From the IMG/VR virus record IMGVR_UViG_2654587568_000008, positions 1 to 6,553 of that record: a stretch of 6,553 bases of DNA. One strand, 5' to 3'. Shown piece after piece: positions 1 through 6,553 of the stretch (within the stretch, counting starts at the first letter, position 1; each line of letters opens with the position of its first letter). Under the pieces are notes generated by a model. It did not search any database and had not been told where the DNA came from. It saw only the letters and a program-made list of their open reading frames with translations. This DNA is from a virus. Lineage: Duplodnaviria > Heunggongvirae > Uroviricota > Caudoviricetes. Position numbers and translations under genes: made by a program.

Positions 1-928
1 GGATTGGATTAGGTTTAATAACATACCTATAATGTTCAGTCATGAGATATCAAGAATAAATGCTACGCCTGGTAACGTTCTTCTACAGAGCACCTCTGCT
101 TTTCCGCGCGTTTTAGTAAAAGCATCTGAGTTGAGAAAGGTTTTAGTTATACGTTCTTTTGAGCCTGATGATCACTTAAAGTTCATATTAGAGAACGCAA
201 TTGAGATATTTAAAAAACAGATGCCAGATCTTGATTGCGAGATTATTGATGTTAGATCGAAAGCTGAGTTTATTGATGCTCTAAATCAATATCAAGGTCA
301 TATTCTTGTTATGGATTGTCATGGAAACCATGATGGCAATGGGAGTCATGGATGGTTAATAATAGGTGAGGATAAAGTGGACACTTGGAGTTTGAGAAAA
401 ATAGCAAGAATTCCTCCTATCGTAATTCTGAGTGCATGTTTAACATCTGCCCTAAGTGGTTCTCATGCCTCTGTTGCTAATGGCTTCGTTATAAGTGGTG
501 CATTAAGTGTCATCGGAACATTACTGCCTGTAAATGCGATAGACTCTGCTATTTTTGTAAGTCGGTTGATCTACCGGTTTTACGAGTTTCCTTCGACGCT
601 ATCTACAAATTTTACACATGTTAATGTAAGGCTTTTTCTTTCTGTTTTTCTTAGGATGTCCTATGCAAGCGATTTAATAAGAGGATTTTTATCTGAAGAT
701 TTGATACCGAATAATTCATGGAAGAAAGATGCAGTTGACATTAACATGTATATAAACATGCTTCACCATGATTGGTATGATTATGTAATTAACAAATTGA
801 CGATGTTAACGGGGCTCACGAAAAAAGATGTACTTGATTTTATCGATAGAAAATTATTCATAACCGAAACTATGTGCTATAGCCAAATTGGATTTCCAGA
901 TGCAATCACAATTAGTCTTAAAGATTGA
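1..928 (+). CDS. CHAT/caspase-like (His-Cys dyad) protease-domain protein, probably 5'-partial (reading frame open from window edge; first in-window ATG at 32; stop TGA 926-928)
   Basis: Frame beginning at nt 2 has no stop before ATG 32, so the ORF may continue upstream, and there is no Shine-Dalgarno before ATG 32. Translation contains ...HILVMDCHGNHDGNG... (His-Gly), about 40 residues later ...PPIVILSACLTSALSG... (Cys), then ...ANGFVISGALSVIGTLLPVNAIDSAIF..., the layout of the CHAT/caspase catalytic core. The gene is much more AT-rich than the rest of the window. Family call is by eye, not HMM. Confidence 0.6.
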   Translation, partial: DWIRFNNIPIMFSHEISRINATPGNVLLQSTSAFPRVLVKASELRKVLVIRSFEPDDHLKFILENAIEIFKKQMPDLDCEIIDVRSKAEFIDALNQYQGHILVMDCHGNHDGNGSHGWLIIGEDKVDTWSLRKIARIPPIVILSACLTSALSGSHASVANGFVISGALSVIGTLLPVNAIDSAIFVSRLIYRFYEFPSTLSTNFTHVNVRLFLSVFLRMSYASDLIRGFLSEDLIPNNSWKKDAVDINMYINMLHHDWYDYVINKLTMLTGLTKKDVLDFIDRKLFITETMCYSQIGFPDAITISLKD

Positions 929-959
929 CAACTGTATGTAATAAATATGGCATACTTCC

Positions 960-1000
960 GGCACAGAGCGAATATAACAGATCAGGTTTAGCTCTGTGCC
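960..1000. repeat. Perfect 10-bp inverted repeat GGCACAGAGC (960-969) / GCTCTGTGCC (991-1000) with 21-nt spacer, between convergent genes at the GC-content boundary
   Basis: Arms are exact reverse complements. No U/T tract follows on either strand, so it is not a classic intrinsic terminator. Confidence 0.7.
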
Positions 1001-1035
1001 ATAGGTGTACCAACTCTCATCTGAGCTAATGCTCG

Positions 1036-1230
1036 TTACTCAATAACTCCCGCAAATTTGTAAATCTTGCGTGATGCCCATTTATTTGGGCATGATTTAA
1101 TATCAGGATCTGGAAAGTCTGGCCTGTATTTCTGGCCAGTTCTCCTGTTTACGCTGTTCCAGCGAAGAACTGTCGATACTGAAACTCCACAGAAGTTGGC
1201 GACTTGTTTAGTTGTCATTAAGTTGTTCAT
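1036..1230 (-). CDS. Small DNA-binding protein, excisionase/AlpA-like (Xis family), 64 aa
   Basis: ATG at 1228-1230 is preceded by GGAGG with 7-nt spacing. Stop TAA at 1036-1038. Product MNNLMTTKQVANFCGVSVSTVLRW...FPDPDIK...KW has the winged-helix pattern of phage Xis/AlpA proteins. Its start overlaps the upstream gene's stop by 1 nt (TAATG). Confidence 0.7.
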   Translation of the reverse strand: MNNLMTTKQVANFCGVSVSTVLRWNSVNRRTGQKYRPDFPDPDIKSCPNKWASRKIYKFAGVIE

Positions 1231-1850
1231 TACTTTACCTCCTGCGGCGGCTCCGGTAGCGGCATCCAGTGGGTTACTTTCGATGCCGGTTCTTCCACAT
1301 CGTCAGTAACTGCCCACCATTTGTTTCTCGACCAATCGTAATACCCTTCGAAGGTATCGCACTCAGTCCAGCCGTAAGACTTCCCCCAACACCAAACATA
1401 CTGTTTATCGTTCGGCATTCGCTCACTACAGCTTATCCAACCATCCGGAGTTACCGGAGAGTTGCCCGACAGCTCGTTCAACTTGTAAGTCTGGCTTACA
1501 GGTTTGGCACCATGAAGCATGGCGGCGCGGCAGGCGTTCCAGCCTTCATCAAAGCCGACTATGCCATTATTTAAAGACGGAAGAGCATCCGGCACCACCG
1601 ACACTGGCTGAGCCATATATAGCGGCTGAACATACCAGCCCTTTGATAACCAACTGTCAGCAATGTTTTTGCTCCTGGTTATTGCCGGAATACCTAAGCC
1701 ATTGTCTGAATGAAGCCACGCCACCGGCTCTGCTTCCAGTGATGCCAGAGCAATTTCATAAGCAAGGCGCTCAACATTGTCTCGCACGTCTAGGCTGCCG
1801 ATTCGTTCTTTGATTTCTTTAATCTGTTCCTTATCGGTGTAAGTGGTCAT
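1230..1850 (-). CDS. yfdT: DUF551-domain prophage protein (Eaa/YfdT-like), 206 aa
   Basis: ORF with ATG at 1848-1850 overlapping the upstream stop (TAATG). C-terminus ...WISCSERMP...VWCWGKSYGW...KVTHWMPLPEPP is the DUF551 signature as I recall it. Position after yfdS matches the K-12 yfdQ-R-S-T order. The symbol is by synteny and memory and is less certain than for yfdQ/yfdR. Confidence 0.7.
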   Translation of the reverse strand: MTTYTDKEQIKEIKERIGSLDVRDNVERLAYEIALASLEAEPVAWLHSDNGLGIPAITRSKNIADSWLSKGWYVQPLYMAQPVSVVPDALPSLNNGIVGFDEGWNACRAAMLHGAKPVSQTYKLNELSGNSPVTPDGWISCSERMPNDKQYVWCWGKSYGWTECDTFEGYYDWSRNKWWAVTDDVEEPASKVTHWMPLPEPPQEVK

Positions 1851-2212
1851 TATGCTCCAGCCTCCGGTGCTTTTGGCATTACTGCCCAGTGAGTGATATT
1901 AATATTTTCAAGGTCCCCGATCTGAAATGTCCACTGCCATTCTCCGGTTTCTTTTTGTCCCCAGGTGTACCAGAGAGAACGCCAGCCAATCAGCCAGCCT
2001 TCTCCGTTAGCATCAAATAACAGAACACTTTCATTTGCTGGTGGCAGTTCAACTGATACTGGTATTACTTTGTTTTCCTGTGCTGCACATTTAGCTTCAA
2101 GCGCATCGAATTTACGCACCAGGTATTCAGCATCCGTTTCATTCACTTTCAGGTCTCGTGGTACACATCTCCCGTGAAGAAACCCTTCCATTTCGAAAAC
2201 ATTCATGCGCAT
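1850..2212 (-). CDS. yfdS: DUF551-domain prophage protein YfdS, 120 aa
   Basis: ATG at 2210-2212 with GGAG 8 nt upstream. Stop TAA at 1850-1852. C-terminus ...GWLIGW...WYTWGQ...NITHWAVMPKAPE is DUF551-like. It overlaps the yfdR stop by 10 nt. Length and position match K-12 YfdS from memory. Confidence 0.75.
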   Translation of the reverse strand: MRMNVFEMEGFLHGRCVPRDLKVNETDAEYLVRKFDALEAKCAAQENKVIPVSVELPPANESVLLFDANGEGWLIGWRSLWYTWGQKETGEWQWTFQIGDLENINITHWAVMPKAPEAGA

Positions 2213-2739
2213 TTGCGTAACTCCGATAACTCGTTAAAACGTTCCATAAACATCCCGTAGGCATGGCCCGGAGCCAGTGGAATAACTTTGAACATCTCTG
2301 TTGTCGGGATACCTTCCAGTACTGGCCAGAAAGAGCCATCATCAAGCCCGAGATCGCGGCGTTCAGTTGCCAGCATGATGAGATCGGCATATTTCACAGG
2401 CGTGCTCATAACCGGGGGTAACCCGTATTTCTCACGGATTACGGCGTCTATTTTTTCTTCCATCCGTTTATAGTCAGGAAGAAGGCGTTTCAGTGGAGCG
2501 GGGATGTCCTGACAATACGCTTCTGTTGCATCATGCATTAACGCTTCAAAAGCAAATTCCTGCGGCACCAGCTGGCTGCAAAGCACCGCATGCTGGGCGA
2601 CACTGTAGAAGTGTGAAAGATGTCCTGCAAAGCGACAGATATTTGAAAGGGAAACTGCGATATCGTTAATCACGATGTCGTCTTTATTTATCTTGTCATA
2701 ATAAAAATGCTTCCCGGAAAAAGTTTTAATAAATGACAT
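2203..2739 (-). CDS. yfdR: HD-domain phosphohydrolase (5'-deoxynucleotidase-type) YfdR, 178 aa; start at ATG 2737-2739 rather than the track's GTG at 2751
   Basis: HD motif H...HD...D is visible (FAGHLSHFYSVAQHAV...ALMHDATEAYCQD). ATG at 2737-2739 is preceded by GGAG with 6-nt spacer, while the track's first codon at 2749-2751 is GTG. The resulting 178-aa length and its position between yfdQ and yfdS match K-12 YfdR from memory. Confidence 0.8.
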   Translation of the reverse strand: MSFIKTFSGKHFYYDKINKDDIVINDIAVSLSNICRFAGHLSHFYSVAQHAVLCSQLVPQEFAFEALMHDATEAYCQDIPAPLKRLLPDYKRMEEKIDAVIREKYGLPPVMSTPVKYADLIMLATERRDLGLDDGSFWPVLEGIPTTEMFKVIPLAPGHAYGMFMERFNELSELRKCA

Positions 2740-2832
2740 TTCGTTCTCCACTTTATATGCGCTGCACCGCGCTGAATTCTGCTAAAAGGAAGCTCTCACC
2801 ATCCGGTGATTATTGAGTTAATTACGTTTCCA

Positions 2833-2856
2833 TAAATGCCCCCGCAGGGGCATTTG
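2833..2856 (-). terminator. GC-rich palindromic hairpin AAATGCCCC-cgca-GGGGCATTT in the yfdQ-yfdR intergenic gap; candidate intra-operon terminator or attenuator (possibly bidirectional)
   Basis: 9-bp perfect stem (2834-2842 / 2847-2855) with 4-nt loop, U-rich at the 3' side of the stem on both strands. It lies in the 116-bp gap between the yfdQ stop (2868) and the yfdR start (2739). Confidence 0.45.
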
Positions 2857-2867
2857 CAGTAATGAAA

Positions 2868-3692
2868 TCAGGCGGTGAAAGTACCAATAAAGGTTTCTAC
2901 TTTGCTGTCTTTGAATTTCTCAACAAGCAGATCACGAAATTCGTTAGCCATTTCTTCCTGCATCGCTTCCAGCTGAATAATGCGCAGAACCAGTACAGGA
3001 CGATCGCCAGTGATAATGCTGAGGCGTAATTTAAACGGACGTTCTTTCAGGCCTTCAAACGGAACGCATTTAAATTCAAATGCCACTGGCATAATGTCTT
3101 TGGTTTTCGCTTCGACAGACTCCATCAGGGAGCGTTTGCCGCTGAAGTCATTGTCTTCAAAATCAGCGGTCTGGTTTGCTTCAATTGTGATTTTACGGAC
3201 TGCCGCAGCCGCTTTGGTTGCCTGAATGGTGTCACCATTAGCATCAAAGCCCACAAGGTAGTCGGCCCAGTCTTCAATCCATTCTGCCAGTGACTTCTGG
3301 GAGTTACGCTCGCCATTAACAGACAACAGAGCAGAAAACGGTGCTGTCTTTTTCAGTTTGAGGGTGGCGGTGTTATCTGCGTGACCTGGTTCATCAATAG
3401 TACCCAGGTTAAGCACACTGACGGCTCGCATATTATCGGCATCGATAAAGCAGCGGGTGCCTTCATCTGCAAGATCTTTAGAATAACGGGTAAAGTCATC
3501 GATGCTGGCAGTGGAAAGCGCACCACGGAAACGGAAGCGATTTAAATTAAATTTTTCCAGATCATGAATGCGGAAATTCTCAGGCAATGCCACAGCATCG
3601 GCACCAATCTTACTGATAATTTCATTAACACCCTGAGCAGAAATAAGGGCATGGATTTGATTAATTGCGGTTGCGTCTAAGTTCTGAGACAT
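2868..3692 (-). CDS. yfdQ: Prophage protein YfdQ (DUF2303 family, function unknown), 274 aa
   Basis: ATG at 3690-3692 is preceded by GAGGA with 6-nt spacer. Stop at 2868-2870. No recognisable catalytic motif. The 274-aa length and position upstream of yfdR match K-12 YfdQ from memory. Confidence 0.8.
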
Positions 3693-3757
3693 AATAAGTC
3701 CTCACTATATAAAGATATTCAGTGATGAGATAAATAATCAGTTAATTAAGAACGATA

Positions 3758-4120
3758 TTAATGACCTGCTGCGCGGAGTTTTCCGTCAGGTTCACCGGCA
3801 AGAGTCAGTAATTGTCCCTGGTCTTCCTGCAGAATAGTCAGGCGACCACCGCGATTGACATACATCGGCGTTTCGGTGGTGTCTTCTTCGGAAATTTTCC
3901 CGCGGTTAGTCGGGCGAACATATGAGAGTTTGTGTTTTATTTTCACACGGTTCTCATCAAACGGTTCGATTTCCAGGTTGAGCGAGACCTTACCTTTGGT
4001 TTTCGTGTTCATCACACCGGAAGCGACTTCACTGAGAACTGCGCCGATTTTGGTTTCAAATACGCCGCCGTCCAGCTCCCCGATAAATGCCTGCACATCA
4101 GTACTGCGTTCGCTAGCCAT
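3758..4120 (-). CDS. yfdP: Prophage protein YfdP-like, 120 aa (true start ATG 4118-4120; the track's 197-aa ORF starting at 4351 is an over-extension)
   Basis: Internal ATG at 4118-4120 (MASERSTDVQ...) is preceded by GAGGAG with 7-nt spacer. The upstream 77 codons translate to a Cys/Arg/His/Pro-rich, non-protein-like sequence and overlap strong RNA hairpins. The 120-aa length matches K-12 YfdP from memory. Confidence 0.7.
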   Translation of the reverse strand: MASERSTDVQAFIGELDGGVFETKIGAVLSEVASGVMNTKTKGKVSLNLEIEPFDENRVKIKHKLSYVRPTNRGKISEEDTTETPMYVNRGGRLTILQEDQGQLLTLAGEPDGKLRAAGH

Positions 4121-4168
4121 TTTGCTGCTCCTCATCATATCGACCCTGCAAGGTCGGTTGGTTTCTCC

Positions 4169-4257
4169 ACAAAACAGAGAAGAACACCTGCGGTGGCAGC
4201 CGCCCGGATGGATTGGGTTATGAGCCCGTCGTCCGGTGATGCTCTTCTCTGTTTTGT
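4169..4257 (-). repeat. 15-bp perfect inverted repeat ACAAAACAGAGAAGA (4169-4183) / TCTTCTCTGTTTTGT (4243-4257) enclosing a 59-nt GC-rich, internally structured loop; long stem-loop in the yfdP 5' leader
   Basis: Arms are exact reverse complements. The loop contains further short hairpins (GCGG/CCGC 4190-4203, GGGTT/GAGCCC 4215-4227). It sits between the DicF-like terminator and the yfdP ribosome-binding site. Confidence 0.6.
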
Positions 4258-4325
4258 AAAAAGAGCGGTACCAGCCGGAAGCAAGTGTACAAACTGGTAC
4301 CGCCAAAGCAGTGGCTGTTGTGGTG
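4258..4325 (-). ncRNA. Candidate DicF-like prophage sRNA with its intrinsic terminator (stem GCGGTACCAG / CTGGTACCGC at 4265-4303, then TCTTTTT)
   Basis: Minus-strand sequence ...CUGCUUUGGCGGUACCAGUUUGUACACUUGCUUCCGGCUGGUACCGCUCUUUUU resembles the E. coli DicF core as I recall it (UUUGGCGGUAUCAGUUUUAC...GCCGCCCUUUUU). A 10-bp GC-rich stem followed by a U tract is directly visible. Location in the early-left leader of a lambdoid immunity region parallels dicF in Qin. Not confirmed by covariance search. Confidence 0.4.
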
Positions 4326-4714
4326 GGGTTGTCACTCAGGCGTATGGTCAACCTGACAATCCGGTGTCCTCAACGGGGAAAGAGTAACCCCGCCATACTT
4401 ACCGCCGCGCCATTTCGCGGATTACCACAACGCTGAGAGCACTTAGCCAGTTACGGCACCACACTTTGTCGCGGCTCCATAAATGCCCTCATCGTTGCAC
4501 CCTGGTCTCTTCCCAGGCGTCAAACCGAATCGCCACGCTGGTTAGGCGTCTTATCAGCATCATCATTGACTTGCACATTCCGGCTACCTGGTTTGTTTGC
4601 CCGAGCAAGGAGTGGATTGTCCCCTTTAACGTCCCCAGACCGCTAACGACGCATGTGCCATACGCCGTGTTACAACCAAATTTTGTTAGTACCTTGTTTG
4701 TAGGTCTGGAAAGA

Positions 4715-4767
4715 AAGATAAAATGAAGTTGCGCATTATGCAAGTGTTTTTATTGCGAGATATGCAA
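4715..4767 (-). promoter_or_regulatory. Candidate OL/PL: two 15-bp operator sites TTGCGCATTATGCAA (4729-4743) and TTGCGAGATATGCAA (4753-4767), centres 24 bp apart, overlapping a candidate leftward promoter
   Basis: Both sites share TTGC-N7-GCAA with the OR site at 5537-5551. Minus-strand -35-like TTGCAT (4738-4743) and -10-like TATCTT (4715-4720) with 17-bp spacing are weak. An alternative -10 CATAAT (4735-4740) has poor -35 spacing. Confidence 0.45.
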
Positions 4768-4777
4768 TTTGATGGGT

Positions 4778-4802
4778 AATGAAAAGCCACCTTCTGGTGG
4801 CT
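4778..4802 (-). terminator. Intrinsic terminator downstream of cI (stem AGCCACC/GGTGGCT, loop TTCT, followed by TTTCATT on the minus strand)
   Basis: 7-bp stem (4785-4791 / 4796-4802) with 4-nt loop and a U-rich tail, located 22 bp past the cI stop codon. Confidence 0.55.
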
Positions 4803-4823
4803 AATTGATGTTGAGGTAGGGGG

Positions 4824-5516
4824 TTAATTGTGTCGCTTAAGGGTTTGTGACTGACTGATTAAGACCTTTCCAAAGACCATAAACCGGTGTTCGTTTTCGC
4901 TGGTAATTCCCCATTCGCGGTAAATCTGATTATCAGAAATTACCAGCAGTTTATCAGGTATCATTTGCAGTCGTTTGACGTAAATTTTATCATCAAAACC
5001 AAATACATATATACCATCCCCATCAAACTGATTGATACTGATATCAACGAAGATGAGATCTCCTGGCTCAATGGTTGGACACATACTGTCCCCACGAACG
5101 TTGATAACTTTAATGTGATTTGCTGGTCGTCCACCAAACATCGATACAGCATTATCAGTTCTGTATTCAATGGCATGAATCACATCAATGACATCACCGC
5201 CCTGGATAAGGCCATTTCCCGCACTGGCACTGACATCCAGCATTTCAATACGGAATACATCCTTCACCTGCGCAACATCCTCACTAATACTGTTTTTACA
5301 TACAGTATTACTTTTGAGGTCTGAGGTAAAGAGATCAGCAATATCAACACCTAAGCTCCTGGCAATATTACTCAGGGCTTGTTCAGTGAATTGTTTCTGC
5401 TTACCTGTTTCGAGGCGCGAGATATTCGCCGCATCCACTCCTATTGCTTCAGCGAGATCGGCGATTTTCATGTTCTTCGCCTGGCGAAGTTGTCTGACTC
5501 GATTTCCTATGTTCAT
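4824..5516 (-). CDS. cI: CI-type prophage repressor: N-terminal XRE-family helix-turn-helix plus C-terminal LexA-like S24 peptidase domain, 230 aa
   Basis: N-terminus ...MKIADLAEAIGVDAANISRLETGK is a helix-turn-helix. C-terminus carries the GDSM serine motif (VRGDSMCPTIEPGD) and a downstream lysine (IYVKRL) as in LexA/lambda CI, with a candidate Ala-Gly cleavage site (SASAGNG). Divergent from the Cro-like gene. Confidence 0.9.
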   Translation of the reverse strand: MNIGNRVRQLRQAKNMKIADLAEAIGVDAANISRLETGKQKQFTEQALSNIARSLGVDIADLFTSDLKSNTVCKNSISEDVAQVKDVFRIEMLDVSASAGNGLIQGGDVIDVIHAIEYRTDNAVSMFGGRPANHIKVINVRGDSMCPTIEPGDLIFVDISINQFDGDGIYVFGFDDKIYVKRLQMIPDKLLVISDNQIYREWGITSENEHRFMVFGKVLISQSQTLKRHN

Positions 5517-5613
5517 GCGTTTATTACATTTCTTTATTGCGCGTTAAGCAAATCAACTTGCGCAAAATATTTGCGTGAAATAATATGCTCATCACGCAAT
5601 ATGTGGAGGTTAT
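5517..5613. promoter_or_regulatory. OR/PR/PRM divergent control region with repeated TTGCG half-sites
   Basis: TTGCG occurs at 5537, 5558 and 5571, CGCAA at 5561 and 5595. 15-bp site TTGCGCGTTAAGCAA (5537-5551). Palindromes TTGCGCAA (5558-5565), CGCAAA-ATA-TTTGCG (5561-5575) and TTGCGTGA...TCACGCAA (5571-5578 / 5592-5599). Candidate PR: -35 TTGCGC (5558-5563), 17-bp spacer, -10 TAATAT (5581-5586). Candidate PRM (minus strand): -35 TTGCTT (5546-5551), 17-bp spacer, -10 TGTAAT (5523-5528). GGAGG at 5605-5609 precedes the cro ATG. Confidence 0.6.
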
Positions 5614-5874
5614 ATGCAATCACCATTACGGAATGTGCGTAAGGCGCACGGATTTACTTTGCAGCATGTTGCTGCGGGCGTTCAGGTCAATCCAGCGACG
5701 CTGAGTCGTATTGAAAGACTGGAACAAATTCCATCTATCGATCTTGCAGAACGTCTGGCCAATTTTTTTAAGGGTGAAATCAGCGAAATGCAGATTCTTT
5801 ATCCGGCACGTTTTCAATCTAGCCAAAACCAGAATGGGTTTAAACCACAGGAACAGGAGGTAAGCCGTGGGTAA
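5614..5874 (+). CDS. cro: Cro-like helix-turn-helix regulator (XRE family), 86 aa
   Basis: ATG at 5614 with GGAGG 4 nt upstream. Helix-turn-helix ...FTLQHVAAGVQVNPATLSRIERLEQIPS. Divergent from cI across the operator region. Stop TAA at 5872-5874. Confidence 0.85.
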   Translation: MQSPLRNVRKAHGFTLQHVAAGVQVNPATLSRIERLEQIPSIDLAERLANFFKGEISEMQILYPARFQSSQNQNGFKPQEQEVSRG

Positions 5875-6418
5875 GCATCACTGGAAAGTGGAAAAACAAC
5901 CTGAGTGGCACGTGAAAGCTGTCAGAAAAACTATCGCGGCATTGCCTGGGGGTTACGCTGAAGCTGCTGACTGGCTGGATGTAACAGAGAACGCTTTATT
6001 CAACCGCCTTCGTGCAGATGGCGATCAGATTTTCCCGCTGGGATGGGCAATGGTTTTACAGCGCGCGGCTGGCACTCACTACATTGCGGATGCTGTCGCA
6101 CAGTCTGCTGGTGGGGTGTTCGTATCGCTTCCTGAAATTGAGGAAGTAGAGAACGCCGATATAAACCAGCGCCTGCTGGAAGTCATCGAACAGATCGGGA
6201 ATTACTCAAAGCAGATTCGTTCGGCAATCGAAGATGGGGTCGTGGAGCCACACGAGCAGACAGCAATTAATGATGAGTTGTATCTGTCAATTTCGAAGCT
6301 CCAGGAACATGCAGCACTGGTCTACAAAATCTTCTGCGCTCCAGAAAAGAGTGACGCCCGCGAGTGTGCAGCTCCGGGCGTCGTGGCGTTTTGTGTCTGT
6401 GGAGAAACTAACGCATGA
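5867..6418 (+). CDS. CII-like / YdaT-type prophage regulatory protein (putative), 183 aa, GTG start, translationally coupled to cro
   Basis: GTG at 5867-5869 is preceded by AGGAGG (5855-5860) and overlaps the cro stop (GTGGGTAA). Possible helix-turn-helix ...GYAEAADWLDVTENALFNRL. Position immediately after cro is typical of CII/YdaT-like regulators. Family assignment is by position and memory only. Confidence 0.7.
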   Translation: MGKHHWKVEKQPEWHVKAVRKTIAALPGGYAEAADWLDVTENALFNRLRADGDQIFPLGWAMVLQRAAGTHYIADAVAQSAGGVFVSLPEIEEVENADINQRLLEVIEQIGNYSKQIRSAIEDGVVEPHEQTAINDELYLSISKLQEHAALVYKIFCAPEKSDARECAAPGVVAFCVCGETNA

Positions 6419-6553
6419 ACAGTTTAACGGCAAATAACCGTTTGTCGCAACAGCTTGTATGGGTCCACCACATATTGCAATTTTTATTCTCTTTTAAAAT
6501 ATATTCCACGGGCGTCATTAGTGCGAGCGCCTTGTGGGGTCTTTTGCTGTTAT
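6415..6553 (+). CDS. Start of a further ORF, 3'-truncated by the window end, coupled to the upstream gene by an ATGA overlap; function unknown
   Basis: ATG at 6415-6417 overlaps the TGA stop at 6416-6418. GGAGAAA lies 7 nt upstream. Frame is open for 46 codons to the window end (MNSLTANNRLSQQLVWVHHILQF...). The AT-rich stretch 6470-6510 could instead be non-coding. Confidence 0.3.
   Translation, partial: MNSLTANNRLSQQLVWVHHILQFLFSFKIYSTGVISASALWGLLLL

Follow-up and report, generated by a model that had tools for sequence, protein, structure and literature searches.

The leader between the repressor gene and yfdP of a lambdoid prophage is probably an untranslated precursor of structured RNAs, including a DicF-type small RNA

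In this work we have investigated the interval between the repressor gene and yfdP in a stretch of viral DNA of 6,553 nucleotides (Caudoviricetes; IMG/VR record IMGVR_UViG_2654587568_000008, positions 1 to 6,553), which at its full length is called the window and whose numbering is used throughout. The window holds the immunity region of a prophage that is lambdoid and of the SfV / mEp460 / cdtI / CPS-53 kind. The leader under study is the gap from the repressor stop (4824) to the yfdP start (4120), and it is bounded by the following genes and signals:

3758-4120, minus strand: yfdP, the first early-left gene, with its ATG at 4120-4118
4785-4802, minus strand: terminator hairpin of the repressor gene found by a terminator scan, 7-bp stem AGCCACC/GGTGGCT, with a weak minus-strand T-run (TTTCATT)
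4824-5516, minus strand: gene of an S24-type (cI-like) repressor, stop at 4824
5614-5874, plus strand: cro
5867-6418, plus strand: a CII/CP76-family gene

The early-left genes after yfdP, also on the minus strand, are yfdQ, yfdR, those of two DUF551 proteins and an excisionase-like gene. An analysis of the letters of this DNA (the original prediction) had described the interval as a GC-rich, structured leader poor in open reading frames (ORFs), with hairpins at the place where lambda encodes its antiterminator N, and had suggested regulation of early-left transcription by RNA, or further non-coding RNAs, in preference to a protein antiterminator. We think it likely that this is the untranslated leader of the operon of the early-left promoter pL, a polycistronic precursor of non-coding RNAs that is cut at long stems and whose terminator attenuates the yfdP operon.

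The composition and folding of the leader are as the original prediction had stated. The G+C content is 0.54-0.55 over 4050-4650 compared with 0.40-0.48 on either side, and the minus-strand RNA from 4708 to 4121 folds at -231.6 kcal/mol, a stability that none of 100 shuffled sequences reached (z = -5.1). All the cited hairpins are present, the two G+C-rich ones in the body of a small RNA (sRNA), the sRNA terminator with a perfect 10-bp stem (4265-4274/4294-4303) and the 15-bp repeat, which is an operator repeat. BLAST against phage records revealed a mosaic in which separate stretches are conserved in different, otherwise unrelated phages. The K-12 prophage CPS-53 was rejected as the source of the leader, since the common stretch is only the last 39 nt before yfdP. 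We read the leader on the minus strand as four parts, with these features:

4729-4767: left operator region OL, two 15-bp operators TTGCGCATTATGCAA (4729-4743) and TTGCGAGATATGCAA (4753-4767), from a direct repeat search
4715-4743, minus strand: putative pL, -35 TTGCAT (4743-4738), 17-nt spacer, -10 TATCTT (4720-4715), start near 4708
4425-4682, minus strand: module A, a structured and conserved RNA about 250 nt long, from homology, RNAalifold and covariation
4667-4659/4655-4647, minus strand: helix H1 of module A
4642-4636/4590-4581, minus strand: helix H2 of module A, which encloses a variable hairpin
4570-4588, minus strand: near-invariant 19-mer GGUAGCCGGAAUGUGCAAG inside module A
4570-4568/4534-4532, minus strand: helix H4 of module A
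4549-4546/4538-4535, minus strand: helix H5 of module A
4517-4513/4505-4501, minus strand: helix H6 of module A (CCUGG-GAAGAGA-CCAGG)
4499-4481/4444-4426, minus strand: H7, the last helix of module A, a long interrupted duplex around a variable insert
4313-4431, minus strand: module B, the structured sRNA body, from homology, RNAalifold and inverted repeats
4431-4424/4324-4317, minus strand: closing stem of module B, GUUGUGGU/ACCACAAC
4420-4405, minus strand: hairpin CCGCG/CGCGG of module B, cited by the original prediction
4392-4374, minus strand: hairpin CGGGG/CCCCG of module B, likewise cited
4362-4354/4334-4326, minus strand: helix GGAUUGUCA/UGACAACCC of module B
4305-4316, minus strand: short unpaired stretch AGCCACUGCUU between body and terminator, from a comparison of 15 family members and the fold
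4255-4304, minus strand: intrinsic sRNA terminator, GCGGUACCAG, 19-nt loop, CUGGUACCGC, then UC UUUUU, from an inverted repeat and BLAST to dicF
4254-4266, minus strand: GCUCUUUUUACAA, earlier called boxA-like, where the terminator stem ends, the U-tract follows and the stem of module C begins
4163-4262, minus strand: module C, a long hairpin with 25-nt arms 4257-4233/4193-4169 (84% complementary) around a conserved branched core, from an inverted repeat (z = -5.5)
4118-4158, minus strand: small hairpin CCGACCUUGCAGGGUCGAU (4158-4139), Shine-Dalgarno sequence GAGGAG (4133-4128) and the yfdP ATG

Module A is a well-supported structured RNA family of which we found no earlier description. An RNAalifold analysis of 21 sequences at most 93% alike gave 45 pairs in seven helices, and 98.7% of the cells hold standard pairs. 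Sixteen pairs were changed on both sides, compared with 7.3 +/- 1.6 in column shuffles (none of 500 reached this number) and 2-7 in controls in which the partners were slid by 1-3 columns. The variable columns are spread evenly over the three codon phases, both in module A (36/35/34, p = 0.96) and in module B (21/17/23, p = 0.54), and the gap runs in the two alignments are mostly not multiples of three, with indels of 2 and 4 nt. The comparative alignment proposed as a check by the original prediction thus shows a leader that evolves as RNA, by compensatory pair changes, and not as protein; together with the homology to the DicF precursor region of the Qin prophage described below, this upholds the part of its conclusion that placed non-coding RNAs here in preference to a protein. 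The 19-mer, counted on members retrieved through an independent anchor in H1, was exact in 101 of 112 family members (from 116 stretches) and carried one or two substitutions in the remaining 11. The H1 loop (GCACAU) could pair with AUGUGC of the 19-mer in a pseudoknot; this was set aside, because the search patterns fix both sides and covariation cannot judge it.

Of 5,426 complete E. coli genomes, 1,638 (30%) carry module A. Nothing except the neighbouring tRNA-Arg was annotated under it in 40 E. coli records sampled across the ranking, no Rfam family matched it and string searches of the literature found no match to its sequence strings. Module A shows an identity of 79-83% to the trnI-ban interval of P1, P7, D6 and related plasmid-phages, to the DNA directly upstream of tRNA-Arg(TCT) in epsilon15-like phages (phiV10, SPN1S, a Klebsiella phage) and to the post-repressor leader of mEp390. 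A scan of one-genome-per-species contigs with the 19-mer extended the range to Kosakonia, Citrobacter, Klebsiella, Kluyvera, Enterobacter, Buttiauxella, Phytobacter and other genera. What follows module A varies: among 210 distinct copies, 49 are followed by an sRNA body of the type in the window, 46 by tRNA-Arg and 35 by the body type found in strain RS218, and a further 22 sit after tRNA-Ile. Lambdoid and epsilon15-like phages repeat the order of the cassette, in which a promoter comes first, then module A, then an sRNA body or tRNA-Arg, then a terminator and last a protein gene on the same strand. A metagenome-assembled genome labelled Bacillota (L153) has a true module A and is therefore probably an enterobacterial contig binned wrongly, while an Oscillospiraceae record (L141) has just a chance match to the 19-mer. 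In Candidatus Erwinia dacicola (L144) a second copy of the start of H6-H7 (GACAGCCUGGAAAGACAGGCACACAACAGGUAAGAGCAUU) lies about 300 nt downstream of module A, and the same was seen in L129 and L134; such copies suggest tandem arrays of units made of a stem plus a small RNA.

H7 has 17 pairs, seven of them with compensatory change, and a fold z of -3.5. By analogy with Qin we propose that it is an RNase III stem which separates module A from the sRNA. A counterpart stem precedes the body of the 190-nt DicF species in Qin, and 190 nt counted back from the DicF 3' end lead into the 3' strand of that stem. The 5' end of the published sRNA-17, placed at CGTTGTGG by its primers, falls in the 3' strand of H7. 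This strand ends in CGUUGUGG, the last four bases of which already begin the tRNA-Arg acceptor stem in epsilon15-like phages.

For module B, 31 pairs were predicted, seven with compensatory change (RNAalifold, 15 sequences). Positions 4431-4309 are 89% identical over 123 nt to K-12 Qin (NC_000913; L157 2752-2874), where the match ends 9 nt before dicF, and module B and the P1 Pban leader have 75% identity where a "dicF-like region" is annotated. The predicted sRNA is about 175 nt long (4432-4259). When the leader is folded at full length H7 is formed and the closing stem of the sRNA is not, whereas the closing stem forms in the fold of the isolated sRNA; this difference is consistent with refolding after cleavage. 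An alternative helix GUAUGG/CCAUAC, for which P1 offers a single compensatory change, would conflict with another supported helix and stays a candidate. Some sRNA bodies have a tRNA-like appearance, with an acceptor-like closing stem of 7-8 bp and, in some relatives, hairpins resembling a T-arm, yet ARAGORN called none of them and the likeness stays an idea.

The unpaired stretch at 4305-4316 lies where relatives have a variable "seed", and from this position it may act as one. DicF has UUUCUGGUGACG there; this seed is absent from the window, which reads CACCACAACAGCCACUGC before the common UUUGGCGGUA. The Rfam model of DicF (RF00039) gave no match on 4100-4830 even at E <= 10, and K-12 dicF as a positive control scored 76.7 bits. 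The 5' arm of the terminator that follows has UUUGGCGGUAyCAGUUU in common with DicF, window 4307-4291 matches inside dicF, and sRNA-17 ends on its 3' side at about 4259 of the window. From these sequence similarities the RNA appears to be the precursor of a prophage sRNA of the DicF type that has another seed. Module C begins directly after the U-tract and is common to SfV, SfII and ST64B; because other genes follow it in L069, L083 and L199, we assign it to the sRNA-terminator cassette and not to yfdP.

The closest known system is the dicB leader of Qin. DicF exists there as two species, of 190 nt and 53 nt, whose 5' ends are generated by RNase III and by RNase E, respectively, and which accumulate in stationary phase; both come from the polycistronic dicBp transcript, primer extension showed no internal promoter, and terminated (1146 nt) and read-through (1608 nt) transcripts were both seen (PMC10448788). 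Like the prophage of the window, Qin is a lambdoid element whose early operon is under repressor control and has a long interrupted stem ahead of a structured body of 123 nt, then a terminator hairpin with the motif given above, followed by protein genes which, in the window, would by analogy also be reached by read-through. The 190-nt species would be the counterpart of our sRNA of about 175 nt. Unlike the window, Qin has ydfA-ydfB-ydfC ahead of the RNA in the place of module A, and dicB downstream instead of yfdPQR.

The second relative is sRNA-17 of E. coli K1 RS218, encoded in an mEp460-like prophage, a 193-nt RNA characterized by rapid amplification of cDNA ends and Northern blotting that accumulates in stationary phase (PMC7719688; Front Microbiol 2020). 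Locus, strand and position of the 5' end are the same as in the window, as are the 3' approximately 85 nt including the terminator, a part that is near-identical (mEp460 99.5%). The central body differs, being of type B in RS218 and mEp460 and of the Qin type in the window, and the two are the same sRNA only if a short 3' form is the active one.

The ban operon leader of P1 also carries both modules, in the same orientation and in one C1-controlled operon. Module B lies directly after Pban, overlapping the "dicF-like region", and module A between trnI and ban; the order is thus the reverse of that in the window, tRNA genes and tciABC stand between the modules, and the P1 module A has no H7. 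Units resembling H7 recur in the ban operon (L005 994-1080, 1189-1314 and 1493-1575) on the strand opposite to the annotated plp and upl, which puts the reality of those two P1 ORFs in question.

In SfV and ST64B the slot after an H7-type stem and before a DicF-like terminator, which in the window holds the alternative Qin-type body, holds STnc100 (RF02076), of which Rfam found no match in the window. Matches below the gathering score of 47, at 33-39 bits, were seen in SfV (L261 1336-1551), ST64B (L260 1298-1416), Qin (L157 2933-3142) and P1 (L005 1571-1690). The match in Qin sits directly after dicF, so Qin seems to carry two tandem sRNA units. The STnc100-like RNAs seem to belong to one modular family with the sRNA of the window. 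SfV (L261 690-790) and ST64B (L260 940-1010) also have another conserved non-coding stretch after pL (ACAGGCAGGACGCCCACGAAGTAGCCGCC...CCGGAUGAUUCG) in the place of module A; it has the 8-mer CAGGAUGA in common with the putL region of HK022, which is not significant alone. The ORF-free leader of ST64B is about 815 nt long.

Where would transcription of the leader begin? We place pL at 4715-4743 by analogy with the pR side (TTGCGC-17-TAATAT) and by its overlap with the operators, whose motif TTGCGnnnnnnGCAA is also present in the cI-cro interval (5537-5610). In phage Ayreon the same boundary of module A has an annotated promoter 34-61 nt upstream of it. Phages with other immunity regions also have window 4100-4687, with a constant junction that closely follows their promoters. 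Epsilon15-like phages and prophages (L127, L138, L143, L149, L152) have a palindrome, (A)TTACCTTTTAGGTAA(T), at a distance of 20-40 nt upstream of module A; because it resembles an operator beside a TTGACA box, the module A cassette of these phages may be repressor-controlled too.

We propose that transcription from pL, starting near 4708, would first yield module A and then a DicF-type sRNA made up of the module B body, the short variable stretch and the terminator hairpin. H7 would form first and, as in the Qin dicB operon, be cut by RNase III, which would free module A and set the 5' end of the sRNA. The freed 5' GUUGUGGU could then pair with ACCACAAC and close the sRNA body. Most polymerases would stop at 4259, the intrinsic terminator providing the sRNA 3' end. 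Those that read through would enter module C, whose 25-bp stem is a second likely RNase III site, and then yfdP-yfdQ-yfdR. As read-through would feed the yfdP operon, the terminator would be an attenuator that sets the ratio of sRNA to early-left mRNA. The dense structure probably shields the 590 nt of untranslated RNA from Rho.

Several points weigh against this proposal. The putative pL has 7 of 12 matches to the sigma-70 consensus and was not listed by the promoter scan, which has a threshold of 9/12. The prophage is known here from its sequence, and cleavage by RNase III as well as by RNase E is presumed by transfer from Qin. The sRNA alone folds no better than shuffled sequences (z = -1.5). 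The authors of the sRNA-17 study put an ArcA-regulated promoter inside module A (PMC7719688); if it is real, the sRNA is a primary transcript. Finally, the proposal assigns no specific function to module A, although this is the best-conserved part.

Could module A have a function of its own? A tentative possibility is that it represents a new class of phage RNA acting on the transcription machinery or on RNA maturation, either as a large cis antiterminator that, in N-less lambdoid phages, carries polymerase past the sRNA terminator or as a leader driving release of the tRNA or sRNA that always follows. If either were true, it would explain the spread of module A over lambdoid, P1-like and epsilon15-like phages and its near-invariant 19-mer. 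The first of these ideas has a narrower form which we judge somewhat less probable still, namely that module A is a cis-acting processive antiterminator RNA analogous to put of HK022, which modifies polymerase starting at pL so that it reads through the sRNA terminator and later ones and so replaces N. HK022 is, like the phage in the window, an N-less lambdoid phage that makes a structured RNA right after pL and ahead of terminators. Module A lies about 25 nt after the start that we infer for pL, in at least four immunity types and always with the same junction, and an intrinsic terminator stands between it and the first gene, an arrangement as in HK022 putL. A TTGACA-type promoter lies directly upstream of module A in Kosakonia prophages, mEp390 and SPN1S. 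A 2025 paper speculates on the use of a put-like RNA by an N-less mEp460-like phage (PMC12315714), and put is missing from the Rfam families, so that the lack of a match there does not rule out such a role.

Against this analogy, put is about 70 nt long, has two stems and occurs at both pL and pR, whereas module A, at about 250 nt and with seven helices, is three times its size, has another architecture and is present in a single copy. BLAST of the leader against the HK022 cI-nun interval gave only chance 9-mers (E = 3), and a profile search found a single copy at each locus and, in L001, no copy in the pR operon over 6 kb to the right of cI. The P1 copy of module A is found midway through the ban operon, behind tRNA-Ile, the copies of epsilon15-like phages adjoin tRNA-Arg, and Qin, SfV and ST64B have the same sRNA-terminator cassette without module A. 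As for the suggestion of the original prediction that RNA-based regulation stands in for a protein antiterminator, antitermination by RNA in the place of N is possible: an N gene is missing, module A follows the putative pL start closely and a terminator precedes yfdP.

An independent sRNA gene is a less likely explanation than put-like antitermination, and we consider it doubtful. According to the authors of the sRNA-17 study, that RNA is a primary transcript with an ArcA-controlled promoter (PMC7719688); the sRNA of the window would likewise have its own ArcA-repressed promoter in module A DNA, and module A would be regulatory DNA and not RNA. That study offers a promoter predicted by BPROM, ArcA sites and an electrophoretic mobility shift assay with ArcA on a fragment equal to window 4432-4682, and it found sRNA-17 expressed in the lysogen, where pL should be repressed (PMC7719688). 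However, the changes in module A are compensatory base pairs, the signature of RNA rather than of protein-binding DNA, and our promoter scan found no site on the minus strand of 4425-4682. The mobility shift was obtained with 20-80 uM ArcA and without an assay of promoter activity (PMC7719688). The homologous DicF locus has no internal promoter by primer extension, and spontaneous derepression explains expression in the lysogen. A deletion mutant of sRNA-17 had 100-fold more yfdP and retained its resistance cassette (PMC7719688); because the cassette is kept, this rise may be read-through from it.

The resemblance of GCUCUUUUUACAA to a boxA element, noted in the original prediction, did not hold up. 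The boxA consensus GCTCTTTAACAA has no ungapped match with three or fewer mismatches at 4254-4266 or anywhere else in 4121-4823. The GCTC of the string is the 3' end of the terminator stem with the U-tract, and it reads GCCC or GACC in relatives, changing with the stem. The lambda nutL boxB loop is GAAGA, and H6, with its 5-bp G+C stem and the loop GAAGAGA, begins like it; a gapped resemblance of 4266-4254 to the rrn boxA can also be drawn. One might thus imagine that the string recruits NusB/NusE, or that H6 is a boxB for an unrecognised N-like peptide. But the string lies after the terminator that would need suppression, the loop of H6 (4517-4501) has 7 nt and not the 5 of a GNRA-like pentaloop, and neither an arginine-rich N-like ORF among the leader ORFs nor another partner protein was found. 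A Nus-factor or N/nut-type site is thus largely refuted and very improbable.

The claim that the interval contains no credible gene was confirmed, since only one of the 15 ORFs of at least 20 residues that overlap it has an ATG start (20 residues, plus strand). No leader ORF matches N, Nun or another antiterminator family in Pfam or PHROGs, and the first gene is yfdP. The earlier inventory was right in calling the leader ORF-poor and incomplete in that it missed three longer frames, all of which fail coding tests:

4335-4135, minus strand: a 66-residue frame starting at GTG
up to TTG 4351, minus strand: an open, in-frame upstream extension of yfdP
3932-4387, plus strand: a 151-residue frame annotated in some phage records, among them cdtI, PHROG phrog_3651

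Two of the leader frames match PHROG families (phrog_3651, E = 4e-96; phrog_33599, E = 5e-17) and none matches Pfam. The plus-strand frame is shortened to 104-134 residues in many relatives of 98-99% identity. Upstream of the yfdP ATG, in module C, the variable columns fall 4/10/9 over the phases of the yfdP frame, compared with 7/5/34 inside yfdP, where the third position takes 34 of the 46 variable columns. Leader frames start at GTG or TTG without a Shine-Dalgarno sequence, and RefSeq annotates nothing in the leader. The leader, 4121-4823, is non-coding. A small protein, be it the 151-residue plus frame, the 66- or 84-residue minus frame or an N-terminally extended YfdP, is hardly credible, since its PHROG matches and the frame open up to 4351 stand against the shortened relatives, the missing third-position bias, the indels of 2 and 4 nt, the weak starts and the empty Pfam and RefSeq results. 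The two PHROG families (window 3932-4387, plus, and 4135-4335, minus) seem to have been assembled from ORF calls over the non-coding leader and antisense to yfdP, and are likely annotation artefacts.

Other known RNAs were also sought. Rfam gave no family at E <= 1 on the whole window and only chance matches in the leader (E = 1.4-6), and neither ARAGORN nor the Rfam tRNA model found a tRNA in the window. AgvB, an anti-sRNA mimic of GcvB that the CA-rich CACCACAACAGCC had brought to mind, was rejected, as Rfam RF02702 does not match and AgvB is located downstream of pR' and not at pL; the Pas sRNAs were rejected because they belong to the late region. In mEp460 (L002 5696-5884) IsrK (67 bits) and the C4 antisense RNA (83.6 bits) stand in tandem in the pR operon, ahead of a Rha/antirepressor gene; this is an immI module of the P1 type in a lambdoid phage, and the corresponding position lies beyond the end of the window. 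An ORF of 298 residues (32-928, plus strand), situated in the early-left region at its far end, was matched by PF12770, the domain of CHAT (caspase-like) proteases, at 28 bits and E = 2e-6, and could be a moron or serve in defence; in L001, the closest relative, a Panacea-domain gene lies in that area instead.

How early-left genes are expressed in phages without N is a question raised in recent literature, and the leader described here shows what occupies the position of lambda N in many N-less lambdoid prophages of the SfV, mEp460, cdtI, CPS-53 and Stx2c types. It joins the 190-nt DicF species, sRNA-17 of the meningitis strain RS218 and the STnc100-like RNAs into a single modular family in which bodies can be exchanged and seeds vary. 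Module A adds an RNA supported by covariation that about 30% of complete E. coli genomes carry, as does P1, and that has had neither an Rfam family nor an annotation. Our results suggest that what was published as the sRNA-17 promoter is a structured RNA that is itself transcribed, which would change how the regulation of sRNA-17 is read.

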